Origin: an uncultured Gammaproteobacteria bacterium
GTDB taxonomy: Bacteria > Patescibacteriota > Patescibacteriia > Magasanikbacterales > UBA922
Length of the DNA stretch: 64,000 nt
Assembly: GCA_964345045.1 (NCBI GenBank)
Contig: CAYFPM010000002.1
Coordinates: 36,286-100,285 of the forward strand
Direction: 5' to 3'
The notes under the pieces were generated by a model. That model was not told where the DNA came from and did no database searches. It saw only the letters and a program-made list of their open reading frames with translations. How positions within the stretch are numbered: the first letter of the stretch is position 1; each line of letters starts with the position of its first letter. The position numbers and the translations under genes are program-made. Shown piece by piece: positions 12,510-56,385 of the stretch.

Positions 12510-12660
12510 AAAAAAGTTTATTTATCATATTGTATTACAGATACTACTTTGTGGCAATCATTCTACAATTCACGTCGTATCCTGATTTATAGAATGGACA
12601 GGTCGGCGTAAACAGACCTGCGAGTTCGTATTTAGATTTTTCAAAGAACAGACAAAAAGA

Positions 12661-13458
12661 TTACAAACGAACGCCAGCAATCTCGAGAGCTCTCTGCACC
12701 CAAAGCTCGGTATAGGCCAAATCACCACCGGCGTCCGGGATACGCACCTCGATCATTACCCCGGTCGCCCGAGCCTTGATCCGGATAAGGTCGTACCAGT
12801 TGCGGAGATCGAAGGCCCACCCCTCCTCTATCCCACGCTGGTAGAGAGCTTCGGGGCTTTCGATTGTCCTGGCTGTTGGGTCGTTACCAACAGCCTCTCG
12901 GTAGAGCCACAACCTCTCTCCACCGGAGCGATCGCACATCTTGATCAATTCATCCTGGCCTTCGACCAATCTATTGTAGCGATCAAGCAATCTGGGCCAG
13001 TCCGGGCAGCCGATGTTCAACTGTTCGCTGGTGATACGTAACGCTGGTAAGAGAATGCCGCGTGCGGCAAGAACCTCTGCAACAGCTCTGTACTCAGTTG
13101 TGGGGTAAATGTTTTGCGGCATGTCTGCTGGCGCTACTGGCATACCAAAGTCGATAGTATATCCAAGCCCATTGGCGACGAGTTTAACTACAGACTTAAG
13201 CGCATCGATCTCGGACAACATCGAATGCACGCAACTATGTGGCTTATTGTTCTTGGCCTCCAGCTGACAAGCCGAAGGCTCGGCACTAAAAGTAGCCGGA
13301 TCCAAAAACGGTAGAATCATCGAAGCCGCAGGCGCCAGAACCCCAGACCTTGCGTTGAGAAAGAAACCCTCAATCTCTATAGAAAGAAGGGCAGCATGTG
13401 AATCGTCGAACACGAACTGACTAAAAAAAGCCTCTTCACCATCTTTATTTACAACCAT
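12661..13458 (-). CDS. hypothetical protein on a GC-rich (about 55%) island
   Basis: 265-aa ORF of atypical composition; SD gagg upstream of the start; no recognisable domain. Confidence 0.55.
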   Translation of the reverse strand: MVVNKDGEEAFFSQFVFDDSHAALLSIEIEGFFLNARSGVLAPAASMILPFLDPATFSAEPSACQLEAKNNKPHSCVHSMLSEIDALKSVVKLVANGLGYTIDFGMPVAPADMPQNIYPTTEYRAVAEVLAARGILLPALRITSEQLNIGCPDWPRLLDRYNRLVEGQDELIKMCDRSGGERLWLYREAVGNDPTARTIESPEALYQRGIEEGWAFDLRNWYDLIRIKARATGVMIEVRIPDAGGDLAYTELWVQRALEIAGVRL

Positions 13459-15005: not shown

Positions 15006-15121
15006 AGGTATAAAAGCTTAAGAGGCTTAAAAAGCTTGAGAGGGTTGAAAGGCAAAATTTCAAGCCTCTCTGGCCAAGCCTGCCGATAGGCAGGCTGTCC
15101 GGCTTCTCAGGCCTCTTTTAA

Positions 15122-20276: not shown

Positions 20277-21338
20277 ATGAACGAAAAATACCAAAAAATT
20301 AAAGAACAATACCAAAAACTAGAACAGGAGCTAACAAACCCTGCTATTGTGGCTGATCAAAAAAAATTAAAAGAAACTTCACAAGAATACAATGAACTAA
20401 AACCAGCGATTGAAAAAATAACTGAATTAGAAAAAATCGTAGAGAGTATTGCTGACACCGAATTACTTTTGGCAGACGAAGAAGATGTGGCTACCAGAGA
20501 ATTGGCCGAAGCCGACTTGGCAGAACTAAGAGACAAAAAAATTAAATTGGACGAAGAAGTTGCTGTACTAACTAGACCAAAAGATCCACTAGACAAAAAA
20601 AATGTAATTGTAGAAATAAGAGCTGGAGCTGGTGGTGACGAAGCAGCTCTTTTTGCTGGAGAATTAATGCGCATGTACATGAAATACGGTGAGAAAAAAA
20701 ATTGGAAAACATCCCTTATTAGCGCCAATCAGATTGGGATTGGGGGTTACAAAGAAGTAATTTTTGCTATAGACGGTGTAAATGTGTTCAAAGATATGAA
20801 ATACGAAATGGGTGTGCACCGCGTACAAAGAATCCCAGAAACCGAAAAAGCCGGTCGTGTGCACACATCTACTTCTAGTGTAGCTATACTGCCAGAAATA
20901 GAAGAAACCGAAATTGAAATAAAACAAAACGATTTGAGAATTGATACCTACTGTGCTAGTGGGAATGGTGGCCAAAGTGTAAACACTACTTACAGTGCTG
21001 TGCGTATTACTCATATTCCAACTGGAATTGTCGCTCAGTGTCAAGACGAAAAATCCCAAACTCAAAACAAAATAAAAGCCATGTCGGTACTGCGCGCTAG
21101 AATCTACGAAGCCGAACAAGAAAAAAAAGAAGCAGAATTATCTGAACAAAGAAAAAGCCAAATTGGCACCGGCGACAGAAGTGAAAAAATCAGAACTTAC
21201 AATTTTCCACAAGACAGAATTACGGATCATAGAATAAAACAAAGCTGGAACAACATCCCCAATGTATTGGATGGAGATTTGGACGACGTTATCGAAGCTT
21301 TGCGTACAGCAGATTATGAGGCGAAGGATGGTGAGTAA
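20277..21338 (+). CDS. prfA: peptide chain release factor 1
   Basis: GGQ motif ([10 protein letters not shown]) and an RF1-type domain 2 (QRIPETE at the PxT position). Confidence 0.9.
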
Positions 21339-21387
21339 TGAGTAAAGAGTAACGGTAATGAATTAATTATATAATCAAAGGAGAAAT

Positions 21388-21753
21388 ATGAAGTTAGGAG
21401 AATTTGAGATTTATAAACTTTCTCGTGAAACATCAAAGTATGTGTGGGAGATATATGATCAATTTGATTGGAAGGTGAGAAAAACAATTGGTGATCAATG
21501 GCTAACTTCTACAGATTCTATTAGCGCCAACATAGCCGAGGGTTTTGGTAGATTCCATTTTTTAGACAAAAATAAATTTTATTATAATGCTAGAGGTTCC
21601 TTGTTCGAAGCCTTGGACTGGACAGACAAACTTACAGAAAGGAAAATTATATCTGAAAAACAATCAAAATATATAATTTCAAAACTTATTTATCTAAGGA
21701 TAAAATTGAATACTCATATAAGATCTAATAAAGAAATGAATTCTAAAATTTGA
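21388..21753 (+). CDS. four-helix-bundle protein (23S rRNA intervening-sequence protein family, TIGR02436-like)
   Basis: Motif SISANIAEGFGR; strong SD aaggag 7 nt upstream; flanked by an 11-bp inverted repeat. Confidence 0.75.
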   Translation: MKLGEFEIYKLSRETSKYVWEIYDQFDWKVRKTIGDQWLTSTDSISANIAEGFGRFHFLDKNKFYYNARGSLFEALDWTDKLTERKIISEKQSKYIISKLIYLRIKLNTHIRSNKEMNSKI

Positions 21754-21793
21754 GTAGACATTACTTATTACTCATTACACTTTACCAAAATTC

Positions 21794-23308: not shown

Positions 23309-24155
23309 TCAGCATATTGATCAGTTGGATGCCGAACTCTTGCTTGCTCATGTAATAAAAAAGACACGAGAGTTTGTTATTTCTCATCCAGAATTTTTAC
23401 CTTCAAGTTTTGAGATTTTAAAATTTAGAAGATTTGTAAAAAAAAGACTAAATAACGTACCTTTGGCTTATTTGATTGGTCACAAAGAATTCTTTGGTCT
23501 GGATTTTTTGGTAAACAAACATACTTTGATTCCCAGACCAGATACTGAAATTTTGGTAGAAAAAGTTATTTCAAATATCAAGGAACAAAAAGCAAAAAAA
23601 CAAAATATTCTATTAATAGATGTGGGGACTGGTTCGGGGAATATCCCTGTTTCTATAAAAAAAACAATGGAACAATGGAACAATAAAACAATTACAACTT
23701 ATGCTACAGATATCTCTGCCAAAGCCCTAAAAATAGCCAAAAAGAATGCAAAAAAACATGGAGTAAAAATAGATTTTTTAAAAGGTAATCTTTTGAATCC
23801 GATTTTAAAACAATGGAACAATATAAAAATAGAACAATATAAAAATCTTATAATCACTGCCAACCTACCTTATTTAACCGAAGCTCAATTTGCAAGCGAG
23901 CCTAGCATCCAAAAAGAGCCTAAAACAGCTTTGGTGGCAAACAAGCAAGGCTTGGCACTCTACGAAAAACTCCTAAACCAAATTAAAAAAATAACTAAGA
24001 ACCATGAACTAAGAACTCTAAACTGTTATCTGGAAATAGACCCTACTCAAACCCAAAAAATAAAAACTTTGATAAAACAATATTTACCAAACGCAAACAT
24101 CCAAATTGCCCAGGATTTGGCCGGACATGATAGGGTGGTAAAAATTGAAATTTAA
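23268..24155 (+). CDS. prmC: release factor glutamine methyltransferase (HemK/PrmC)
   Basis: Motifs LIPRPDTE, DVGTGSGNI and NLPY; the exact start is uncertain because it overlaps the upstream ORF. Confidence 0.8.
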   Translation: MLQQKIKTILQKTNQHIDQLDAELLLAHVIKKTREFVISHPEFLPSSFEILKFRRFVKKRLNNVPLAYLIGHKEFFGLDFLVNKHTLIPRPDTEILVEKVISNIKEQKAKKQNILLIDVGTGSGNIPVSIKKTMEQWNNKTITTYATDISAKALKIAKKNAKKHGVKIDFLKGNLLNPILKQWNNIKIEQYKNLIITANLPYLTEAQFASEPSIQKEPKTALVANKQGLALYEKLLNQIKKITKNHELRTLNCYLEIDPTQTQKIKTLIKQYLPNANIQIAQDLAGHDRVVKIEI

Positions 24156-32032: not shown

Positions 32033-32108
32033 TAAGTAATAAGCAGATTAAGCAGAGTAAAAATTATTTATGTTACTTACTCTGTCTATTCTGCTTAATC
32101 TGCTTATC
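32033..32108. repeat. AAGCAGATTA(G/A)GCAG palindromic repeat, copy 1
   Basis: taataagcagattaagcagagtaa...ttactctg..ctgcttaatctgcttat inverted arms. Confidence 0.65.
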
Positions 32109-34488: not shown

Positions 34489-34573
34489 TTTCCACTAATT
34501 TCAAATTTTGAAATCACTGGAATGAGAGAGACTGGCGACATGCCCCCGTTGGCGTAGTCTCGCAAACGCTCTG

Positions 34574-35179
34574 CTAGGTATAACAGAGCAGACGATCATT
34601 CTCTGCCGTATCTGAGTTGACACAAACTATTGCCCTCTTGGGTCTTAGTTCTTTGAGAGAAAGATTCAACCCCTCTTTTCCAGAAAGATCCACCGGATAC
34701 CTATAGGAAGACCAGGGGTGTTCCAATGGCAAGCACATCCTATGCTTGGCGTAGTTCCACCAGTCCGGAATTTTCAGCTCCAGACACTCCGAACCTATCA
34801 AAGAGGCCAAAGCGTGCCACGGATAGTCCAGAATCATGTACGGAAAAGCCGGCTCGATCTCGAAATAAGCTTCGAAGGGATCGACACCAGACAGATCTTG
34901 AAGACTCTGGGGTTTGTTCGTAGGCTCGAGCGGACTCCTCGTGACCGAGACCTTGAACTCGAAGTGGTAGTTGACCACGGCTCGAGTACTCGGCTGGTCG
35001 GCCTGGCAAGTGCAGACGGAGGAGTCCAGGCTCTGGCTTTCTACCGACTGGGGTGGTAGCCCCAGGGACAAGGCAAAAGAGAGCAAGGCGACAGCCAAGG
35101 CGAATAGGGACAAAGTTCCCCAGATCCTCTCCTGGCTATTCGGGCAAGAAGATTGCAAATTGTATTGTGACATTGTCAC
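34574..35179 (-). CDS. hypothetical secreted protein on a GC-rich island
   Basis: GC about 55%; hydrophobic N-terminal segment; probable ATG at 35173 with SD aggagg 6 nt upstream (the ORF track uses GTG at 35179). Confidence 0.55.
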   Translation of the reverse strand: MTMSQYNLQSSCPNSQERIWGTLSLFALAVALLSFALSLGLPPQSVESQSLDSSVCTCQADQPSTRAVVNYHFEFKVSVTRSPLEPTNKPQSLQDLSGVDPFEAYFEIEPAFPYMILDYPWHALASLIGSECLELKIPDWWNYAKHRMCLPLEHPWSSYRYPVDLSGKEGLNLSLKELRPKRAIVCVNSDTAENDRLLCYT

Positions 35180-35213
35180 CTCCTACTTATCAGTTTATCC
35201 ACTCTTGGCAAAC

Positions 35214-35242
35214 TTGACAAGTGGCTCAAATTAGGCTATATT
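35214..35242 (+). promoter_or_regulatory. sigma70 promoter upstream of secE-nusG
   Basis: TTGACA, a 17-nt spacer, then TATATT. Confidence 0.55.
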
Positions 35243-35367
35243 AAGCCTATCATCAATTTCGGCCAAAAGGCCGTTTTAAAATACTTTTTTGTTTGCAAAG
35301 GCTAACAAAGCTGGCAAGGCCTTGTAAGCCTTCTAGGCCTCCTAAGCCTTGCAAGCCTCTAACGCAT

Positions 35368-38712: not shown

Positions 38713-38895
38713 TTTTTAGTACCTCTTACAACACTGTGTATCTGGCTCAATTAACAAGTAATTTCATTTACATTTTATTATATTGATTATCTTTTTCTGA
38801 AAGAATATTTGGCTCATCAATAACCAAAAGGAATCTGTGTGGAACCGTCGCTCCAACTCCACACAGATGGTGGTAGAAGCGACGGTTCCTGTCCG

Positions 38896-39228
38896 TCAGT
38901 TCAAGATGCCCGAAACTCCGAATTTCGCCACCCAGAAGTAGATGGTCTTCCCCCACCACGAGTGGGGTTCGAGCGGATTGACGTTGTAGATGCCTCCAGG
39001 CTGTGGAGACAGCTCAAGAAGAGTGCCATCGTGGAACGTCGTCACTCGATCGACGATACCCACGATCAGGTCCCAGAAACGAACCGGAACTCTCAAACTC
39101 TTACAGACCATCTCATGGTCAATCTTCGGAAGGTTGACCCGACGCACGGCGTGAGCCAAACTGCTGGGGTTGAGGGGTCGGCCACTATCGTCAAGAATGG
39201 AACGTCTGTACCAATCTGATTGCATCAA
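38896..39228 (-). CDS. hypothetical protein on a GC-rich island
   Basis: GC about 55% across 38830-39290; probable ATG at 39225 with SD ggagg 8 nt upstream. Confidence 0.5.
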   Translation of the reverse strand: MMQSDWYRRSILDDSGRPLNPSSLAHAVRRVNLPKIDHEMVCKSLRVPVRFWDLIVGIVDRVTTFHDGTLLELSPQPGGIYNVNPLEPHSWWGKTIYFWVAKFGVSGILN

Positions 39229-39570
39229 GATCTCCTCCGAGGTTATGCCGGCTGGTGAACTCCAGACGGACGTTTCACAATATCATAAAAATGGACATTT
39301 GTCAATGATTTAGTTAAAATTTTAGCTAATTTTAGCTCTTTTCTACCAAAAGATTTAAAATTAATGTCTATCGTTGTTTGGATGTTGAAGTTTCTAGTTT
39401 TGGAAAAACAAAAAAAAGAGGCTTTAACCTTATATTTCGAAAACAAAGAGCCGAACTTCGCATACACCGAAACGTTGTGATGGAATCACTCACCCTACTC
39501 TATTGAGAGCAATTAAAAAAATCAATCAAAAAACCCCTCTTTCTCGAGGAGTTTTTTAATTTATCTTTAT

Positions 39571-47695: not shown

Positions 47696-47777
47696 CGTCA
47701 TTCCCAGCTTGACTGGGAATCCAGATAATGAGCAAGTCCTTGCACATAACTGGATTCCCGTTTGCACGGGAATGACG
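47696..47777. repeat. GTCAT-family four-segment palindromic element (cgtcattccc variant)
   Basis: cgtcattccca/tgggaatccag ... ctggattccc/gggaatgacg. Confidence 0.65.
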
Positions 47778-47823
47778 ATTTAAGGAACCATGCACTACAA
47801 ACCAAAACTATGAACTATTGGCT

Positions 47824-48381
47824 ATGAACAATAAACTAATAATTGGAATCGTAGGACAAATGGCTGCGGGCAAAGGAACCGCCGCTAATTATTTGAAAGA
47901 AAAGTATGGTGCCAGCACTTATACTTTTTCAACTATGCTAGGTGATGTGCTAGATAGATTTCATCTAGAAAGAAACCGAGACAATTTTATAAAAATATCC
48001 GAGCAAATGCGCTCTACCTTTGGTGAAGACATAATGGCCAAAACCATGGCCAATGACGTAAAAAAAGATAGTAATAATCTAATTGTAGTAGAGGGAGTAA
48101 GGAGAGACGCTGACATAGAATATCTAAGCCAAATGGAGGGATTTGTGCTCGTAGAAATTTTTGCTAATATGGAAAAAAGATTTGAAAGAACCAAAAAGCG
48201 TGGTGAAAAAATAGATGATAATGACAAAACTTTTGAAGAGTTCGAAGCAGATCACCAAAGATCTACCGAACTTTCTACAGTAGAAGTTGCCAAACAAGCC
48301 ACAATTAGAATAGATAATAATGGCACACTTGAAGAACTTTATACACAGCTAGACAGTTTAATTAAGCAAAATAAGGATTAA
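47824..48381 (+). CDS. P-loop nucleoside monophosphate kinase-like protein (adenylate/dNMP-kinase fold), specificity unknown
   Basis: P-loop GQMAAGKGT; lies inside the dNTP-metabolism gene run; the ORF-track start at 47818 is TTG, and the ATG at 47824 is more likely. Confidence 0.6.
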   Translation: MNNKLIIGIVGQMAAGKGTAANYLKEKYGASTYTFSTMLGDVLDRFHLERNRDNFIKISEQMRSTFGEDIMAKTMANDVKKDSNNLIVVEGVRRDADIEYLSQMEGFVLVEIFANMEKRFERTKKRGEKIDDNDKTFEEFEADHQRSTELSTVEVAKQATIRIDNNGTLEELYTQLDSLIKQNKD

Positions 48382-48426
48382 GCAGATTAGGCAGGTTAAG
48401 AATTTTACTTACTCTGCTTAATCCTG
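48375..48426. repeat. AAGCAGATTAGGCAG palindromic repeat, copy 2
   Basis: ggattaagcagattaggcag...tctgcttaatcc; overlaps the kinase stop codon and lies 10 nt before dut. Confidence 0.65.
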
Positions 48427-48435
48427 TTTATTTTT

Positions 48436-48861
48436 ATGAAAGTTAAAGTTAAAAAAACTCACCCAGATGCAAAAATGCCAAGTTACGCTCACCCCGGAGA
48501 TGTAGGTTTGGATATGTATTCTGTAGATGAAGCAGTTATAGAACCTGGTGATAGAAAATTGCTCAACTGCGGTTTTGCTCTAGAATTTCCAGAAGGTTAC
48601 GCCGCCATAGTAAAAGACAAAGGTGGCCCTCCTCACAAATATGGTTTACACTGCTTGGGCGGAGTTTTTGACGCCGGCTATCGTGGCGAGTACAATGTAA
48701 ATCTTGTAAATTTGGGTCACGAAAAAGTAACCATAGAAAAAGGACAAAAAATCGCTCAATTGGTTTTGTTTCCAGTAGCCATTGCCGAACTAGAAGAGAC
48801 CGAGGAATTGAGTGATAGTAGTAGAAAAGATGGGAAGTTTGGAAGCACTGGAGTATTCTAA
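48436..48861 (+). CDS. dut: dUTP diphosphatase
   Basis: Trimeric dUTPase motifs (GDVGLDMY, GVFDAGYRGE, RKDGKFGSTG). Confidence 0.9.
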   Translation: MKVKVKKTHPDAKMPSYAHPGDVGLDMYSVDEAVIEPGDRKLLNCGFALEFPEGYAAIVKDKGGPPHKYGLHCLGGVFDAGYRGEYNVNLVNLGHEKVTIEKGQKIAQLVLFPVAIAELEETEELSDSSRKDGKFGSTGVF

Positions 48862-48868
48862 CATTTTA

Positions 48869-48914
48869 GTTCATCGTTCTTGGTTCTTAGTTCTGAGAAC
48901 CAAGAACGATGAAC
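48869..48914 (+). promoter_or_regulatory. 18-bp perfect inverted repeat hairpin between dut and thyA
   Basis: gttcatcgttcttggttc - ttagttctga - gaaccaagaacgatgaac. Confidence 0.6.
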
Positions 48915-48929
48915 CATGAACTACTAAAT

Positions 48930-49802
48930 ATGAGAAATTATCTAGATATTGTAAAAAAAGTTTTGGAGGAAGGAGTGTACAAAGTAGACCGCACTGGAAC
49001 TGGTTGCTATTCTGTAGCCGGAGTTTTGTTTGAACACAACATGGCCGACGGTTTTCCACTGCTTACTACCAAAAAGATGCCCTATAAAATTATTGCTAGC
49101 GAACTAGAATTTTTTATAAAAGGAATTACAGACAAAGAATGGCTAAAGGAAAGAAAAAACCATATCTGGGACGAATGGGCCAACCCAAAAAAAGCTCCTT
49201 ATGGGCACGACGAAGAAAGTAAGAAAAAAATGATGGAAGAAAGAGACCTAGGCCCGGTTTACGGATTCCAATGGCGTAACTTTAATGCTCCATACTACAA
49301 CTTTGACACAGATTATTCTGGCCAGGGTGTAGACCAATTTAAATACGTAGTTGAAACTCTTAAAAATAATCCTAGCGACAGACGCATGCTCGTAGTCGCC
49401 TGGAACCCGGCGATGAAAGATCAAATGGCCTTGCCGCCTTGCCACTACGCCTGGCAAGTGACTGTAACTGGTGGAAAACTAAACCTAATGTGGAACCAAA
49501 GATCAGTAGATGTTATGCTTGGACTCCCCTTTAATATTGCTAGCTACGCTACCCTACTCCACTTACTTGCCAAAGAAGCTGGTCTCGAAGAAGGTCGTTT
49601 GGTAGGATTTTTGGGGGACACCCATATTTACAAAAACCATGTAGAGGGCGCCAAAGAGCAACTAACCCGTGATCCAAACAAGCACAAATTACCAAAGCTG
49701 GTTACAGAAAACTTTACTTCTATTTACGATTGGACTTATACCGATAGTAAAGTCACTGATTACGAAAGTTACCCAAGAATTAAATTTGATATTGCAGTGT
49801 AG
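48930..49802 (+). CDS. thyA: thymidylate synthase (ThyA)
   Basis: Active-site LPPCHYAWQV; MRNYLDIVKKVLEEG N-terminus; the ORF-track ATG at 48909 lies inside the hairpin arm. Confidence 0.9.
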   Translation: MRNYLDIVKKVLEEGVYKVDRTGTGCYSVAGVLFEHNMADGFPLLTTKKMPYKIIASELEFFIKGITDKEWLKERKNHIWDEWANPKKAPYGHDEESKKKMMEERDLGPVYGFQWRNFNAPYYNFDTDYSGQGVDQFKYVVETLKNNPSDRRMLVVAWNPAMKDQMALPPCHYAWQVTVTGGKLNLMWNQRSVDVMLGLPFNIASYATLLHLLAKEAGLEEGRLVGFLGDTHIYKNHVEGAKEQLTRDPNKHKLPKLVTENFTSIYDWTYTDSKVTDYESYPRIKFDIAV

Positions 49803-49861
49803 ATGGTTCATAGCCAATCGCCAATAGTTAATAGTTTATAATTTATATTTAAGGGGGAATT

Positions 49862-50215
49862 ATGAAAACATATAAAGATCTTGATGTGTGGAAAAAGTCC
49901 ATAGAACTAGTTATAGAACTGTATAGGATTACAAAACTATTGCCCATTGAAGAAAAGTTTGGGCTGGTATCACAAATGCGGCGTTGTACTGTATCGATCC
50001 CCTCAAACATTGCAGAAGGTTATGCTAGAAAAAATAGAAAAGAAAACGCCCAATTTGTAAATATTGCATTCGGTTCTGGTACAGAATTGGAAACCCAAAT
50101 AATTATTGTAAAAAAGTTAAATCTAATAAAACAAGAAGAATTTACAAAAGCAGATCAATTATTGGACAGTGTATTACGAATGCTTTATAGGTATCGTGAA
50201 TCACTTTACCAATAA
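49862..50215 (+). CDS. four-helix-bundle protein (23S rRNA intervening-sequence protein family)
   Basis: Motifs DLDVWKKS...SIPSNIAEGYAR; strong SD aggggg; flanked by roughly 25-30 bp inverted repeats. Confidence 0.8.
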   Translation: MKTYKDLDVWKKSIELVIELYRITKLLPIEEKFGLVSQMRRCTVSIPSNIAEGYARKNRKENAQFVNIAFGSGTELETQIIIVKKLNLIKQEEFTKADQLLDSVLRMLYRYRESLYQ

Positions 50216-50239
50216 ACGATTGGCTATGAACTATTGGCT

Positions 50240-50719
50240 ATGCACCAAATATCTCTAGTTGCCGCAATTTCCAAAAACAACTGTATTGGCAAAGACAATA
50301 CCCTGCCTTGGGATATCCCGGCAGATATGAAAAGGGTAAAAGAATTAACCATTGGTAGAAATGTAATCATGGGACGCAAAACTTGGGAATCAATCCCAGA
50401 AAAATTCCGTCCATTACCAAAAAGAAAAAATATTATTATTACCCGAAACAATAATTTGGAAGTGCCAGAAGGAGTAGAAGTTTATAATAGTATCGAAGAA
50501 GCCATTGAAAGGCATAAAGGTGAAGAGATTGTTGGTTTTGGAGGTCAAAGAATTTTTGAAGAAATGATGCCAATAGCCGATGTGCTCTACATTACCCACG
50601 TCGATCAAGAAGTAGACGAGTGCCAAGCTTATTTCCCAGAGATAGATCAAAAAATTTGGCAAGAAACAGAAAGAGAAGATTTCGATGGCTATTCGTTTGT
50701 AACTTATAAAAAAACCTAG
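50240..50719 (+). CDS. folA: dihydrofolate reductase
   Basis: Region ISLVAAISKNNCIGKDNTLPW...GRKTWESIP; the ORF-track start at 50234 is TTG, and the ATG at 50240 is more likely. Confidence 0.9.
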   Translation: MHQISLVAAISKNNCIGKDNTLPWDIPADMKRVKELTIGRNVIMGRKTWESIPEKFRPLPKRKNIIITRNNNLEVPEGVEVYNSIEEAIERHKGEEIVGFGGQRIFEEMMPIADVLYITHVDQEVDECQAYFPEIDQKIWQETEREDFDGYSFVTYKKT

Positions 50720-50798
50720 TCATCCTGAGCGAAACGCAGTGGAGCCGAAGGATCCCAGTGGGAGTCCGAAGAGATCCTTCGCTCAGCTCAGGATGACT
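50718..50798. repeat. GTCAT-family palindromic element with 16-bp terminal inverted repeats
   Basis: agtcatcctgagcgaa ... ttcgctcagctcaggatgact with an inner gaaggatc/gatccttc hairpin; overlaps the folA stop codon. Confidence 0.7.
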
Positions 50799-52349: not shown

Positions 52350-52378
52350 AAAGCCCCGGCCAAAAGCCGGGTCTTTTC
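52350..52378 (+). terminator. intrinsic terminator
   Basis: gccccggcc-aaaa-gccgggtcttttc. Confidence 0.6.
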
Positions 52379-52417
52379 AATGTACCGACGACGTGATAAT
52401 CTAACCTGTGAATAAAC

Positions 52418-52480
52418 AATAAGCAGATTAGGCAGAATAAGCAGTTTTTGCTTAATTCTTACTCTGCCTAATCTGCTTAC
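52418..52480. repeat. AAGCAGATTAGGCAG palindromic repeat, copy 3
   Basis: aagcagattaggcag pairs perfectly (15 bp) with ctgcctaatctgctt; 16 nt upstream of gatB. Confidence 0.7.
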
Positions 52481-52495
52481 TACTTACAAAAAGCT

Positions 52496-54084: not shown

Positions 54085-54121
54085 TGTATAAAATAGCAGT
54101 CAAAAACCTTGAGGAGGTCCG

Positions 54122-55033
54122 ATGACACACATAATTTTGACCGTAGTCGGGTACCTTGGCCTAAACCTAGCGATATGGTTGTCGCTGGGTGAAGGTGGCC
54201 TGGTCATGATCGCTTTTAGCAACATGCTGGGGGCACTAATCACTTTCATCCGCTTCCGAACGGAGGTGGATTCTCAGCAAAGAGAAATCAAGTGGCTGCC
54301 AGCCCTTAGTGGCTCGCTCGGTATTTTGCTCATAGTGTACGGGCTGCGTTCTTCGCACGCCCACCTGCCAGTAAGCCTATCGATAGAGGCAGTCTACAAC
54401 ACCTTTGCTACCCTAACCTGGCCAATGTTTGTGTTCTTGCACTGGGTGGCTCCAAAGCACTTTTCCGATCGACCCAATACCCTCGATATCTTCTGCCACG
54501 TGCTTATGTTCGGCATGGTAGTCCTAAGGTTTGCAACCTACAGCGGGTTCGAACCTTCCGAAAACATCTGGGTGGTTTTTATCCCAGTGTGTGGCTACAT
54601 GCTGTTCAACATCAGTATCAAGCTGTCGGGTGGGCACCGCATGACCAACATTGCAATGAACATCGGTGGTGGTGTCCTGTTACTCCTAATGGCCGGCAAG
54701 ACTGGCGAGCTAAGAGCCTCGAGCTTTACGCCTCAGTACGTAGCCGCCCTCACAATAGGTGCACTTAGCATCTACACGGTGGTGAGTCGCCTAGGAGCAA
54801 GCTACAAGCACTTCATCGGTCGAGGACAAGCCTCTCTGGTCGCCCCGCTGGTCTACGACGGTATCCTAGTGGCATCTCCAGCTATTATGTATTTCACCGA
54901 CGAAGCCCAACACTTCACCCGGTGGACAATTGTAGTGGCTCTTGGCATGCTGGTCATAACGGCGATTCGCTATTTTGGCCACCAGCGTAGTCTAGTAAGC
55001 AGCGCCGCAGCCAAACCTCAAGAAGAGACATAA
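54122..55033 (+). CDS. hypothetical polytopic membrane protein on a GC-rich island
   Basis: GC about 55%; SD gaggagg 5 nt upstream; about 8 TM helices. Confidence 0.55.
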   Translation: MTHIILTVVGYLGLNLAIWLSLGEGGLVMIAFSNMLGALITFIRFRTEVDSQQREIKWLPALSGSLGILLIVYGLRSSHAHLPVSLSIEAVYNTFATLTWPMFVFLHWVAPKHFSDRPNTLDIFCHVLMFGMVVLRFATYSGFEPSENIWVVFIPVCGYMLFNISIKLSGGHRMTNIAMNIGGGVLLLLMAGKTGELRASSFTPQYVAALTIGALSIYTVVSRLGASYKHFIGRGQASLVAPLVYDGILVASPAIMYFTDEAQHFTRWTIVVALGMLVITAIRYFGHQRSLVSSAAAKPQEET

Positions 55034-55214
55034 TCCCCACCCGCTTCGCGCTTGGTGGGTTCATTCATTTTTATAGACAAATTATAATTTGCCAACCCAA
55101 ATCCTCTGTGTTAAAATAATTCTCGATATGAATAAAAAAATCGCAGAAAAAGACATGGAGACAAATAATCAAAGCCAATGGCCACTCTGATAGGAGTGGT
55201 CTTTTTTTAAAAAT

Positions 55215-56273: not shown

Positions 56274-56279
56274 TTTTTA

Positions 56280-56367
56280 AGTCATCCTGAGCGAAGTGAA
56301 GGATCCCAGTTAAAGTAAGAGATTCTTCGACTTCACTCTGCGTTGCTCCGTTTCGCTCAGAATGACT
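56280..56367. repeat. GTCAT-family palindromic element between carA and carB
   Basis: agtcatcctgagcgaa ... ttcgctcagaatgact; its terminal atgact supplies the spurious ATG at 56362. Confidence 0.7.
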
Positions 56368-56385
56368 AAATACTCCGCAAAACCT

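Follow-up and report, generated by a model that had tools for sequence, protein, structure and literature searches.

An IVP gene between inverted heptamer arrays at the thyA-folA junction

The stretch of DNA analyzed here (the window) spans 64,000 nucleotides of contig CAYFPM010000002.1 (positions 36,286 to 100,285, forward strand; assembly GCA_964345045.1) from an uncultured bacterium placed by GTDB in the Magasanikbacterales (Patescibacteriota). Our subject is a compact cassette, ~445 nt in total, that fills the spacer between thyA and folA (49797-50254) and carries a gene for one of the intervening-sequence proteins (IVPs) of 23S rRNA between two inverted repeat arms. The plus strand applies to thyA, folA, the genes and arms of both IVP cassettes in the window, and the gene-less arrays at 47806-47838 and 48866-48921. 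The upstream host gene, thyA (thymidylate synthase, 48909-49802; PF00303, E 3e-95), ends in a TAG (49800-49802) at the base of a predicted stem, and the downstream host gene, folA (dihydrofolate reductase, 50243-50719; PF00186, E 1.1e-51), begins at ATG 50243, from which its N terminus aligns with those of relatives. Between them, the IVP gene (49862-50215) encodes a 117-amino-acid four-helix-bundle protein assigned by profile matches to the IVP/TIGR02436 family. The wider neighborhood consists of cdd, a kinase gene, dut, thyA, folA, tmk, and gatB.

A first-pass annotation, made from the letters alone, had described imperfect inverted repeats around this gene. The repeat is real: its two arms (49804-49839 and 50212-50247) each measure 36 nt, show 78% complementarity, form the longest inverted pair at a separation of 600 nt or less in the window, and align with a score 7 standard deviations above that of shuffled flanks. 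It is not a simple repeat, however, since both arms are built of tandem ~7-nt units (TTCATAG, CCAATAG, and variants), among them the 14-nt double unit ATTGGCT-ATGAACT. The left array (49804-49846) runs TTCATAG, CCAATCG, CCAATAG, TTAATAG, TTTATAA, and the right arm (50212-50247) runs ATAAACG, ATTGGCT, ATGAACT, ATTGGCT, ATGCACC. Tandem Repeats Finder (TRF) detects a period of 7 at 49823-49852 and of 14 at 50215-50242; in having tandem 7-nt units within an intergenic spacer, the arms resemble short tandemly repeated repetitive (STRR) sequences. The left arm sets in 2 nt past the thyA stop, while the right arm overlaps the IVP stop codon (50213-50215) and contains the folA start. TAG triplets at 49800, 49811, 49825, and 49832 occupy frames 0, 2, and 1 over a span of 35 nt, so no reading frame stays open through the left arm.

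An array with only one arm, made of the same units in the orientation of the right arm and again with period 7 in TRF, covers the start of the kinase gene (47806-47838; ATG 47824). It shares with the cassette the exact 19-mer CTATGAACTATTGGCTATG, found at 47808-47826 and 50224-50242 (chance expectation, 0.03 matches; none of 100 shuffles equaled the observed count), which bears out the earlier report of a solo right-flank motif at the kinase start. In most relatives, cdd and the kinase gene abut or overlap at this site. The cassette sequence is identical in three independent assemblies, and an assembly artifact is therefore excluded.

The enclosed gene had been correctly recognized as a member of the intervening-sequence (IVS) family: it matches PF05635 with an E value of 7.8e-38 (129.4 bits; cutoff, 33.8) and TIGR02436 with 120 bits (cutoff, 24), and a search for IVS-family homologues returned 4,704 matches. 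Described over 30 years ago and represented by solved structures and thousands of homologues, the four-helix-bundle proteins of the IVS/S23p type have no known function. The closest solved relative is Xanthomonas XCC0516 (PDB 2GSC, E 7.8e-23), whose entry holds five chains and which has been described as a homopentamer (PMC4990558). By homology to 2GSC, the cassette protein would be expected to adopt the four-helix-bundle fold and the homopentameric state. The conserved IVP motif, QMRR..SIPSNIAEGyaR....E..F...A.GS..ELeTQ, contains no HUH/Y motif, and no nuclease or recombinase motif was recognizable in the profile matches. Among five cassettes with CCAATAG-type arms, the ratio of nonsynonymous to synonymous divergence (dN/dS) is 0.06 to 0.13, with dS above 1.3 or saturated, which indicates that the protein is functional and under purifying selection.

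The IVP gene is preceded by a strong Shine-Dalgarno sequence, AAGGGGG (49851-49857), 4 nt 5' of its ATG. Across the 49 window genes examined, the leaders of native genes are A/T-rich and almost entirely without a Shine-Dalgarno sequence, the two IVP genes being clear exceptions. The first-pass contrast with native genes holds within the window, where only ~2 to 3 of 47 other genes have a Shine-Dalgarno-like match at a usable distance, and it applies to both IVP copies there. As a general hallmark of the cassettes we rejected it, since outside the window the comparison gives only 40% against 20%.

Flanking arrays across the IVP family

We surveyed 81 distinct IVP genes from a metagenome scan, mostly 45 to 61% identical to the query, together with 158 control genes from the same loci. 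When the upstream flank was aligned with the reverse-complemented downstream flank, the median score was 27 for IVP genes and 15 for controls, and scores of at least 24 were reached by 67% of IVP genes but only 2.5% of controls (p 1.8e-20). The top outlier among the controls proved to be another, more divergent IVP gene. The inverted repeats first noticed around one gene thus recur around other copies, the second IVP gene of the window among them. Autocorrelation of the flanks at lag 7 was 0.41 upstream and 0.38 downstream, compared with 0.30 in controls; lag 8 was raised too, and lags 6 and 9 were not.

Arms match their own partners far better than partners swapped between cassettes (median score, 26 versus 14; p 1e-27), so the two arms of a cassette covary. 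On the three contigs with two IVP genes and both arm sets readable (the window, L102, and L120), each cassette has different units. The arms, then, belong to the gene and covary with its subfamily, and belong neither to the site nor to the genome. Units are retained although synonymous sites are saturated, which implies that arm sequence matters beyond complementarity. The flanks are also polar, with a coding-strand GC skew of +0.41 upstream and -0.32 downstream (controls, ~0) and both signs as expected at 80% of IVP genes versus 16% of controls; the orientation of the gene within the hairpin is therefore fixed. This polarity is a property of the family, the left arm at thyA-folA being roughly G/C neutral. 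In a count that covered IVP genes only, both neighboring genes are co-oriented in 51 of 68 cases; the gaps filled are ~10 to 80 nt.

The same arrangement is found on plasmids and viral contigs. Heptamer-type arrays flank at least one side of 13 of the 14 plasmid-borne IVP genes inspected, with ~10 clear inverted pairs, in Nostoc, Anabaena, Geminocystis, Picosynechococcus, Leptolyngbya, Pseudanabaena, Riemerella, and Gemmatirosa. Their units, which include GGGAGTA, CAGGGAA, AAGGGGA, and GGAGTCA, are G-rich upstream and C-rich downstream. All seven IVP copies on viral contigs have flanking arrays.

Insertion at thyA-folA and related junctions

A ThyA scan of 185,579 species genomes yielded 80 loci, and relatives were placed on a neighbor-joining ThyA tree. 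Relatives were compared for an empty site, as the first-pass annotation had proposed. In many relatives thyA and folA lie only 2 to 27 nt apart, including nine with ThyA 68 to 79% identical to that of the window (L015, L021 to L023, L026, L027, L029, L031, and L036); in L015, the 79% relative, the junction reads ...TAATTATG.... The sister of the window on the ThyA tree, L004, has an orthologous thyA-folA cassette with an IVP 82% identical. On the next branch, L018 has an empty thyA-folA junction and carries an IVP 69 to 70% identical, with the same arm units, at folA-tmk. Further related IVPs lie at ybaB-recR (L009) and epimerase-asnB (L005), both within CCAATAG/TTCATAG arrays. Related IVPs (69 to 82% identical to the window copy) in arrays of these units therefore occupy four different junctions in the window, L004, L005, L009, and L018. 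Copies within one species share a single site. The comparison of relatives shows that the cassette reached thyA-folA by insertion, and the proposal of a cassette inserted together with repeats of its own stands. The outcome named in the first-pass annotation as refuting it was not observed: other copies do have flanking inverted repeats, and orthologous loci in relatives are mostly empty.

Gene-less hairpins of the same units also occur. One of 85 nt, of CCAATAG-type units, lies at thyA-folA in L017, which belongs to a different ThyA clade from that of the window. L017 and L009 come from one assembly, UBA11699, and L009 holds a cassette plus a solo hairpin at 387-420; L004 has a solo hairpin of cassette units at dut-thyA (2085-2145). 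Origin of the L017 hairpin by precise deletion of the open reading frame (ORF) was considered and rejected, since its loop holds no recognizable remnant of a cassette interior and its ThyA clade is separate.

Other relatives have unrelated short-period hairpins at thyA-folA (L016, L019, L024, L025, and L039). In L020, the junction holds a Fic-domain gene (HPFKDGNGRTGR; 1724-2700) with a promoter-like TTGACA...TAAAAT; this 1.07-kb insert was rejected as another cassette because the gene lacks flanking arrays. Since relatives carry unrelated hairpins or a Fic gene there, thyA-folA is clearly a permissive site.

Transcription, folding, and a proposed mode of action

A promoter scan of the thyA-folA cassette found no full promoter consensus inside it, and no terminator consensus, so the cassette is probably cotranscribed with the cdd-kinase-dut-thyA-folA-tmk operon, which begins with cdd and reaches as far as a terminator-like hairpin (52355-52371). 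An internal promoter is possible at a lone TATAAT hexamer (49837-49842), a candidate -10 box between the left arm and the IVP start codon; no -35 partner was found for it, and such hexamers are frequent by chance in an AT-rich genome. In the predicted RNA fold, 49797-49820 pairs with ~50225-50243, and a terminal stem closes each of the two window cassettes in both minimum free energy and centroid folds. The first cassette has a folding z score of -3.66, and none of 100 shuffles folded as well.

We think it probable that the locus is an IVS-type hairpin cassette whose host is an mRNA operon rather than rRNA. Its insertion, the purifying selection on its protein, and the sequence constraint on its arms are established by the comparisons above. 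According to the modeled fold, the arms would pair in the transcript into a stem that brings the stop of thyA alongside the start of folA. If it resembles the rRNA IVSs of Coxiella, Leptospira, and Salmonella in this respect, the stem may serve as a substrate for RNase III, whose cleavage would free the IVP mRNA and disconnect the thyA message from that of folA. The heptamer units might additionally be read, most plausibly by the pentameric IVP itself. An additional reader is favored over a purely RNA-structural role because arm mismatches show no G.U bias, arrays are direct in Pseudanabaena, and neither the periodicity nor the conservation of the units is needed for a stem.

Several observations weigh against this interpretation. 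Among 60 arm pairs, 53 mismatches were compatible with G.U pairing on the sense strand and 63 on the antisense strand (p 0.4), most mismatches being transversions, so selection for RNA pairing as such is not visible. For the second window cassette, folding is overall no better than that of shuffles (z = -1.0). About one third of the IVP family members surveyed have no detectable flanking inverted repeat, and the arrays of the Pseudanabaena plasmid copy are direct rather than inverted. None of the 81 IVP copies lies in rRNA, so processing in mRNA would be an extrapolation from rRNA IVSs; at the only copy with a poorly coding flank (L152), as at 14 other loci scanned, Rfam detected no rRNA. No Rfam family matches the thyA-folA cassette either, a single tRNA being the sole Rfam match in the window. 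As for mobility, no target-site duplication is present (the bases outside the arms are GTGTAGA and AATATCT) and no transposase was found for the cassette, so the argument for mobility is one of comparative genomics. Moreover, the window and L004 hold an insertion from a common ancestor, and relocations are old. Of the first-pass suggestion of a mobile cassette, insertion with its own repeats is retained, whereas recent or frequent mobility is not, given descent in the window and L004 and the saturation of synonymous sites.

Comparison with known elements

ORF-bearing IVSs of 23S rRNA occur in Coxiella burnetii and Leptospira (PMC4990558). The IVS of Coxiella burnetii lies in helix 45 of 23S rRNA, measures 428 to 444 nt, has a 28-bp terminal stem with an S23p ORF in its loop, and is excised by RNase III (PMC4990558). 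Two to three tandem GACAGAT heptamers, their number depending on the strain, stand upstream of S23p, and the 5' cut by RNase III falls at the start of the first repeat (PMC4990558). The thyA-folA cassette is of similar size, likewise holds an IVP ORF in the loop of a closing stem, and likewise has tandem heptamers upstream of the ORF (purine-rich in Coxiella), and gene-less short versions exist of both. Its location differs, between two protein-coding members of an operon where the IVSs occupy helix 45 or 25 of 23S rRNA, and its stem is less perfect. Purifying selection acts on its IVP; the ORF of Coxiella, in contrast, is in decay and seems not to be expressed. RNase III excision has been demonstrated there and is only presumed here.

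STRR heptanucleotide arrays are a feature of heterocystous cyanobacteria. Heptamer arrays have also been described in Xanthomonas, with the unit GGGAATC, and in Nostoc, with the unit GGGGA(C/T)T (PMC4692102); in Beggiatoaceae the unit is TAACTGA (PMC4679880), and in Geobacter the elements comprise four to five units (PMC2700814). According to the searched passages of these papers, the arrays resemble the cassette arms in having 7-nt units, about four per array, between codirectional genes and often in convergent pairs. Those passages treat the arrays as free-standing (as G-quadruplexes, regulator sites, or translational control) and do not mention IVP genes with them. IVP genes on Nostoc plasmids are flanked by heptamer arrays of exactly this STRR-like kind. 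A full-text literature search found no general link between IVP genes and flanking heptamers, the sole mention being the local observation in Coxiella.

Heptanucleotide arrays have thus been catalogued repeatedly without explanation, and here they are physically coupled to IVP genes. The coupling of IVP gene and subfamily-specific heptamers spans candidate-phyla bacteria, cyanobacteria, Bacteroidota, Gemmatimonadota, viral contigs, and, by the published account, the Coxiella rRNA IVS. We can only speculate that IVP genes with inverted heptamer arrays form a widespread, unrecognized class of hairpin elements comparable to RAYT/REPIN systems. In such a class, an Avd-like pentamer would read its own units, and the non-autonomous progeny would comprise ORF-less rRNA IVSs and the unexplained heptamer arrays known from cyanobacteria, Xanthomonas, Geobacter, and candidate-phyla bacteria; we regard this as rather unlikely. 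For annotation, it matters that conserved operons with translational coupling (thyA-folA, ybaB-recR, cas10-cmr3, and cas6-cas4) are interrupted by these cassettes.

Two familiar element types were considered and rejected. An integron gene cassette is likewise a small promoter-less unit, codirectional in an expressed array, but the thyA-folA cassette has repeats on both sides of its ORF, no single downstream attC, no integrase, and housekeeping neighbors. MITEs (miniature transposable elements with inverted repeats) resemble it in their terminal inverted repeats and gene-less derivatives; the absence of a target-site duplication and of a transposase family speaks against a MITE or an insertion sequence.

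Alternative explanations

RAYT genes are flanked by inverted repetitive extragenic palindromic (REP) sequences, and the thyA-folA cassette shares this architecture: a single gene stands between inverted copies of a short repeat that is specific to the gene subfamily and has in some genomes also been seen in gene-less intergenic hairpins, with mostly vertical inheritance and rare relocation. It is conceivable, though we consider it unlikely, that the heptamer hairpins replicate and that the IVP is a trans-acting DNA-level factor that recognizes, maintains, or disperses them; gene-less hairpins at other junctions would then be non-autonomous copies, and RNA processing would be incidental. Such an explanation accommodates subfamily-specific units that persist despite saturated synonymous sites, the solo hairpins or arrays of cognate units in UBA11699 (L009 and L017), L004, and the window (47806-47838), a tandem periodicity suited to repeated binding by a multimer like the five-chain relative 2GSC, the lack of an RNA-specific wobble bias, and the direct arrays that still flank a gene in Pseudanabaena. 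It fits poorly with the protein, a small four-helix bundle without HUH/Y1 transposase motifs or any recognizable nuclease or recombinase motif; the HUH/Y1 transposase that defines a REPtron was not found, the only matches being to PF05635 and bAvd. Nor are the arms one palindromic REP, being tandem ~7-nt arrays. Solo copies of cassette units number 0.55 matches per 10 kb at their own locus and 0.61 in unrelated loci, a difference without statistical significance in loci this short, and most solo hairpins in the window consist of other units (TAAGCAG and TTAGTTC) with no cognate IVP in 64 kb. The strong coding-strand polarity of the flanks points instead to a strand-specific role at the level of RNA or expression. 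Less probable still is that the IVP gene is a vertically inherited accessory gene that happens to sit among the generic intergenic hairpins of its lineage (operon punctuation, mRNA stabilizers or attenuators, or repeats grown by slippage), with neither cassette nor mobility. Some hairpin does occur at every operon junction in the window, five relatives have unrelated hairpins at thyA-folA (L016, L019, L024, L025, and L039), the insertion in the window and L004 is shared by descent, and copies within a species occupy a single site. But flanking inverted arrays are 27 times commoner at IVP genes than at same-locus neighbors, arms of the same units flank related IVPs at four junctions, two cassettes of one contig differ in their units, close relatives have empty sites, and distant phyla share the layout. 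The present data largely refute this explanation.

The arms might also act as translation insulators, TAG-bearing units stopping ribosomes from either side and the inverted symmetry arising as a by-product. Since 7 cannot be divided by 3, tandem TAG-bearing units close all three frames, as they do within 35 nt in the left arm at thyA-folA, and the enrichment of lags 7 and 8 but not of 6 and 9 is in keeping with this. In the survey, TAG was enriched 3.2-fold on the upstream sense strand and 2.75-fold on the downstream antisense strand of IVP genes (controls, 0.85- to 0.9-fold), and stops in all three frames within 30 nt were present upstream at 40% of IVP genes versus 15% of controls, and on the downstream antisense strand at 43% versus 5%. 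In the passages searched, a comparable view is discussed for the TAACTGA heptamers of Beggiatoa (PMC4679880). A sense-strand stop is, however, missing from many units of cyanobacteria (CAGGGAA, AAGGGGA, and GGAGTCA), which confines the fit to the candidate-phyla subset; host stop codons are already present; and arm complementarity, unit conservation, and G/C polarity are left unexplained. We therefore hold a primary insulator role to be very unlikely. The last explanation, and by far the least credible, is that the IVP is a relic of a diversity-generating retroelement (DGR) in the form of an orphan Avd. Avd has a homologous four-helix-bundle fold and binds nucleic acid and the reverse transcriptase of its retroelement, and DGR targets use a hairpin or cruciform. 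The thyA-folA protein has weak bAvd similarity (PF22296, E 1.5e-4; NF033474, 27 bits), and the domain most often encountered in the vicinity of DGR reverse transcriptases is PF05635 (PMC10053308). Both scores nevertheless fall far below the family cutoffs (PF22296, 22.6 versus 40 bits; NF033474, 27.4 versus 80 bits), all neighbors serve nucleotide metabolism and none is a reverse transcriptase, and the repeats within 49700-50350 include no template/variable pair.

Cassettes on viral contigs and in cas operons

In several of the viral-contig cassettes (L189 to L194), -10-like boxes (TGATATAAT, GATGATAAAAT, ATGATATAGT, and TGGTATACT) lie ~40 to 60 nt 5' of the IVP start, between left arm and start codon as the TATAAT of the thyA-folA cassette does, which suggests that some of these cassettes bring their own promoter. 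The IVP ORF of L194 has an in-frame stop. On cyanobacterial plasmids, cassettes stand within cas operons, in the orders cas6-IVP-cas4, cas10-IVP-cmr3, and IVP-cas4 (L178, Pseudanabaena; L185, Picosynechococcus; L186, Anabaena sp. 90). A "23S rRNA IVP" has been listed as a CRISPR-associated domain (PMC10910872). Insertions into cas operons, together with adjacent repeat arrays, may explain this association as an insertion artifact, not a functional link.

A second cassette and other hairpins in the window

The second IVP gene of the window (21388-21753) lies between prfA and a PMT-type glycosyltransferase gene. It is divergent, encodes 121 amino acids (PF05635, E 1.5e-19, 70.6 bits), and is preceded by the Shine-Dalgarno sequence AAGGAG. 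Its left arm (GGTGAGTAATGAGTAAAGAGTAACGGTAATG; 21330-21361) is G-rich, consists of GAGTAAT-type units, and covers the last codons and stop of prfA; its right arm (CATTACTTATTACTCATTACACTTTACC; 21759-21786) consists of inverted heptamer units. The GAGTAAT-type units are absent elsewhere in the window save for one match with 2 mismatches.

At the dut-thyA junction, a gene-less heptamer hairpin of TTAGTTC/AGAACCA units (48866-48921; 22-nt arms, 95% complementary) is of the same element class as the IVP cassette, minus the ORF. Every junction of the cdd-kinase-dut-thyA-folA-tmk operon in the window has a hairpin; those at 47700-47780, 48361-48436, 48866-48921, and 50718-50798 are of the types GTCATTCCC...GGGAATGAC, ATTAAGCAG (9-mer), TTAGTTC (7-mer), and GTCATCCTGAGCG.... 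At cdd-kinase and thyA-folA, the two junctions compared, close relatives lack the hairpin of the window; at cdd-kinase, a heptamer hairpin of another type (TGATAAN/TATCAGC) is present in the sister genome L004.

Hairpins of TAAGCAG-type 9-nt units occur in at least three intergenic copies (32039-32107, 52413-52486, and 48363-48436), and further 9-nt arrays, GCCTTCTAA and GCTTAAGAG, lie at 35299-35362 and 15011-15051; no cognate gene for the TAAGCAG-type and 9-nt hairpins is present in the 64-kb window. An imperfect palindrome of the GTCATCCTGAGCGAA...GGATC type has two intergenic copies (56277-56370 and 50718-50798) and looks like a separate dispersed hairpin family.

Four GC islands (51 to 52% GC versus 38% for the window) lie between ordinary genes at 12571-13440, 34521-35230, 38791-39310, and 54101-55110. 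Their longest ORFs have no Pfam match, and the islands have no Rfam match at an E value of 0.1 or less and no mutual similarity; they could be unknown structured RNAs or foreign genes. Finally, the prmC coding region contains short tandem repeats of 7 to 8 nt at 23663-23692, 23809-23846, and 23993-24024 (AACAATGG, AACAATAG, and AACTAAG).

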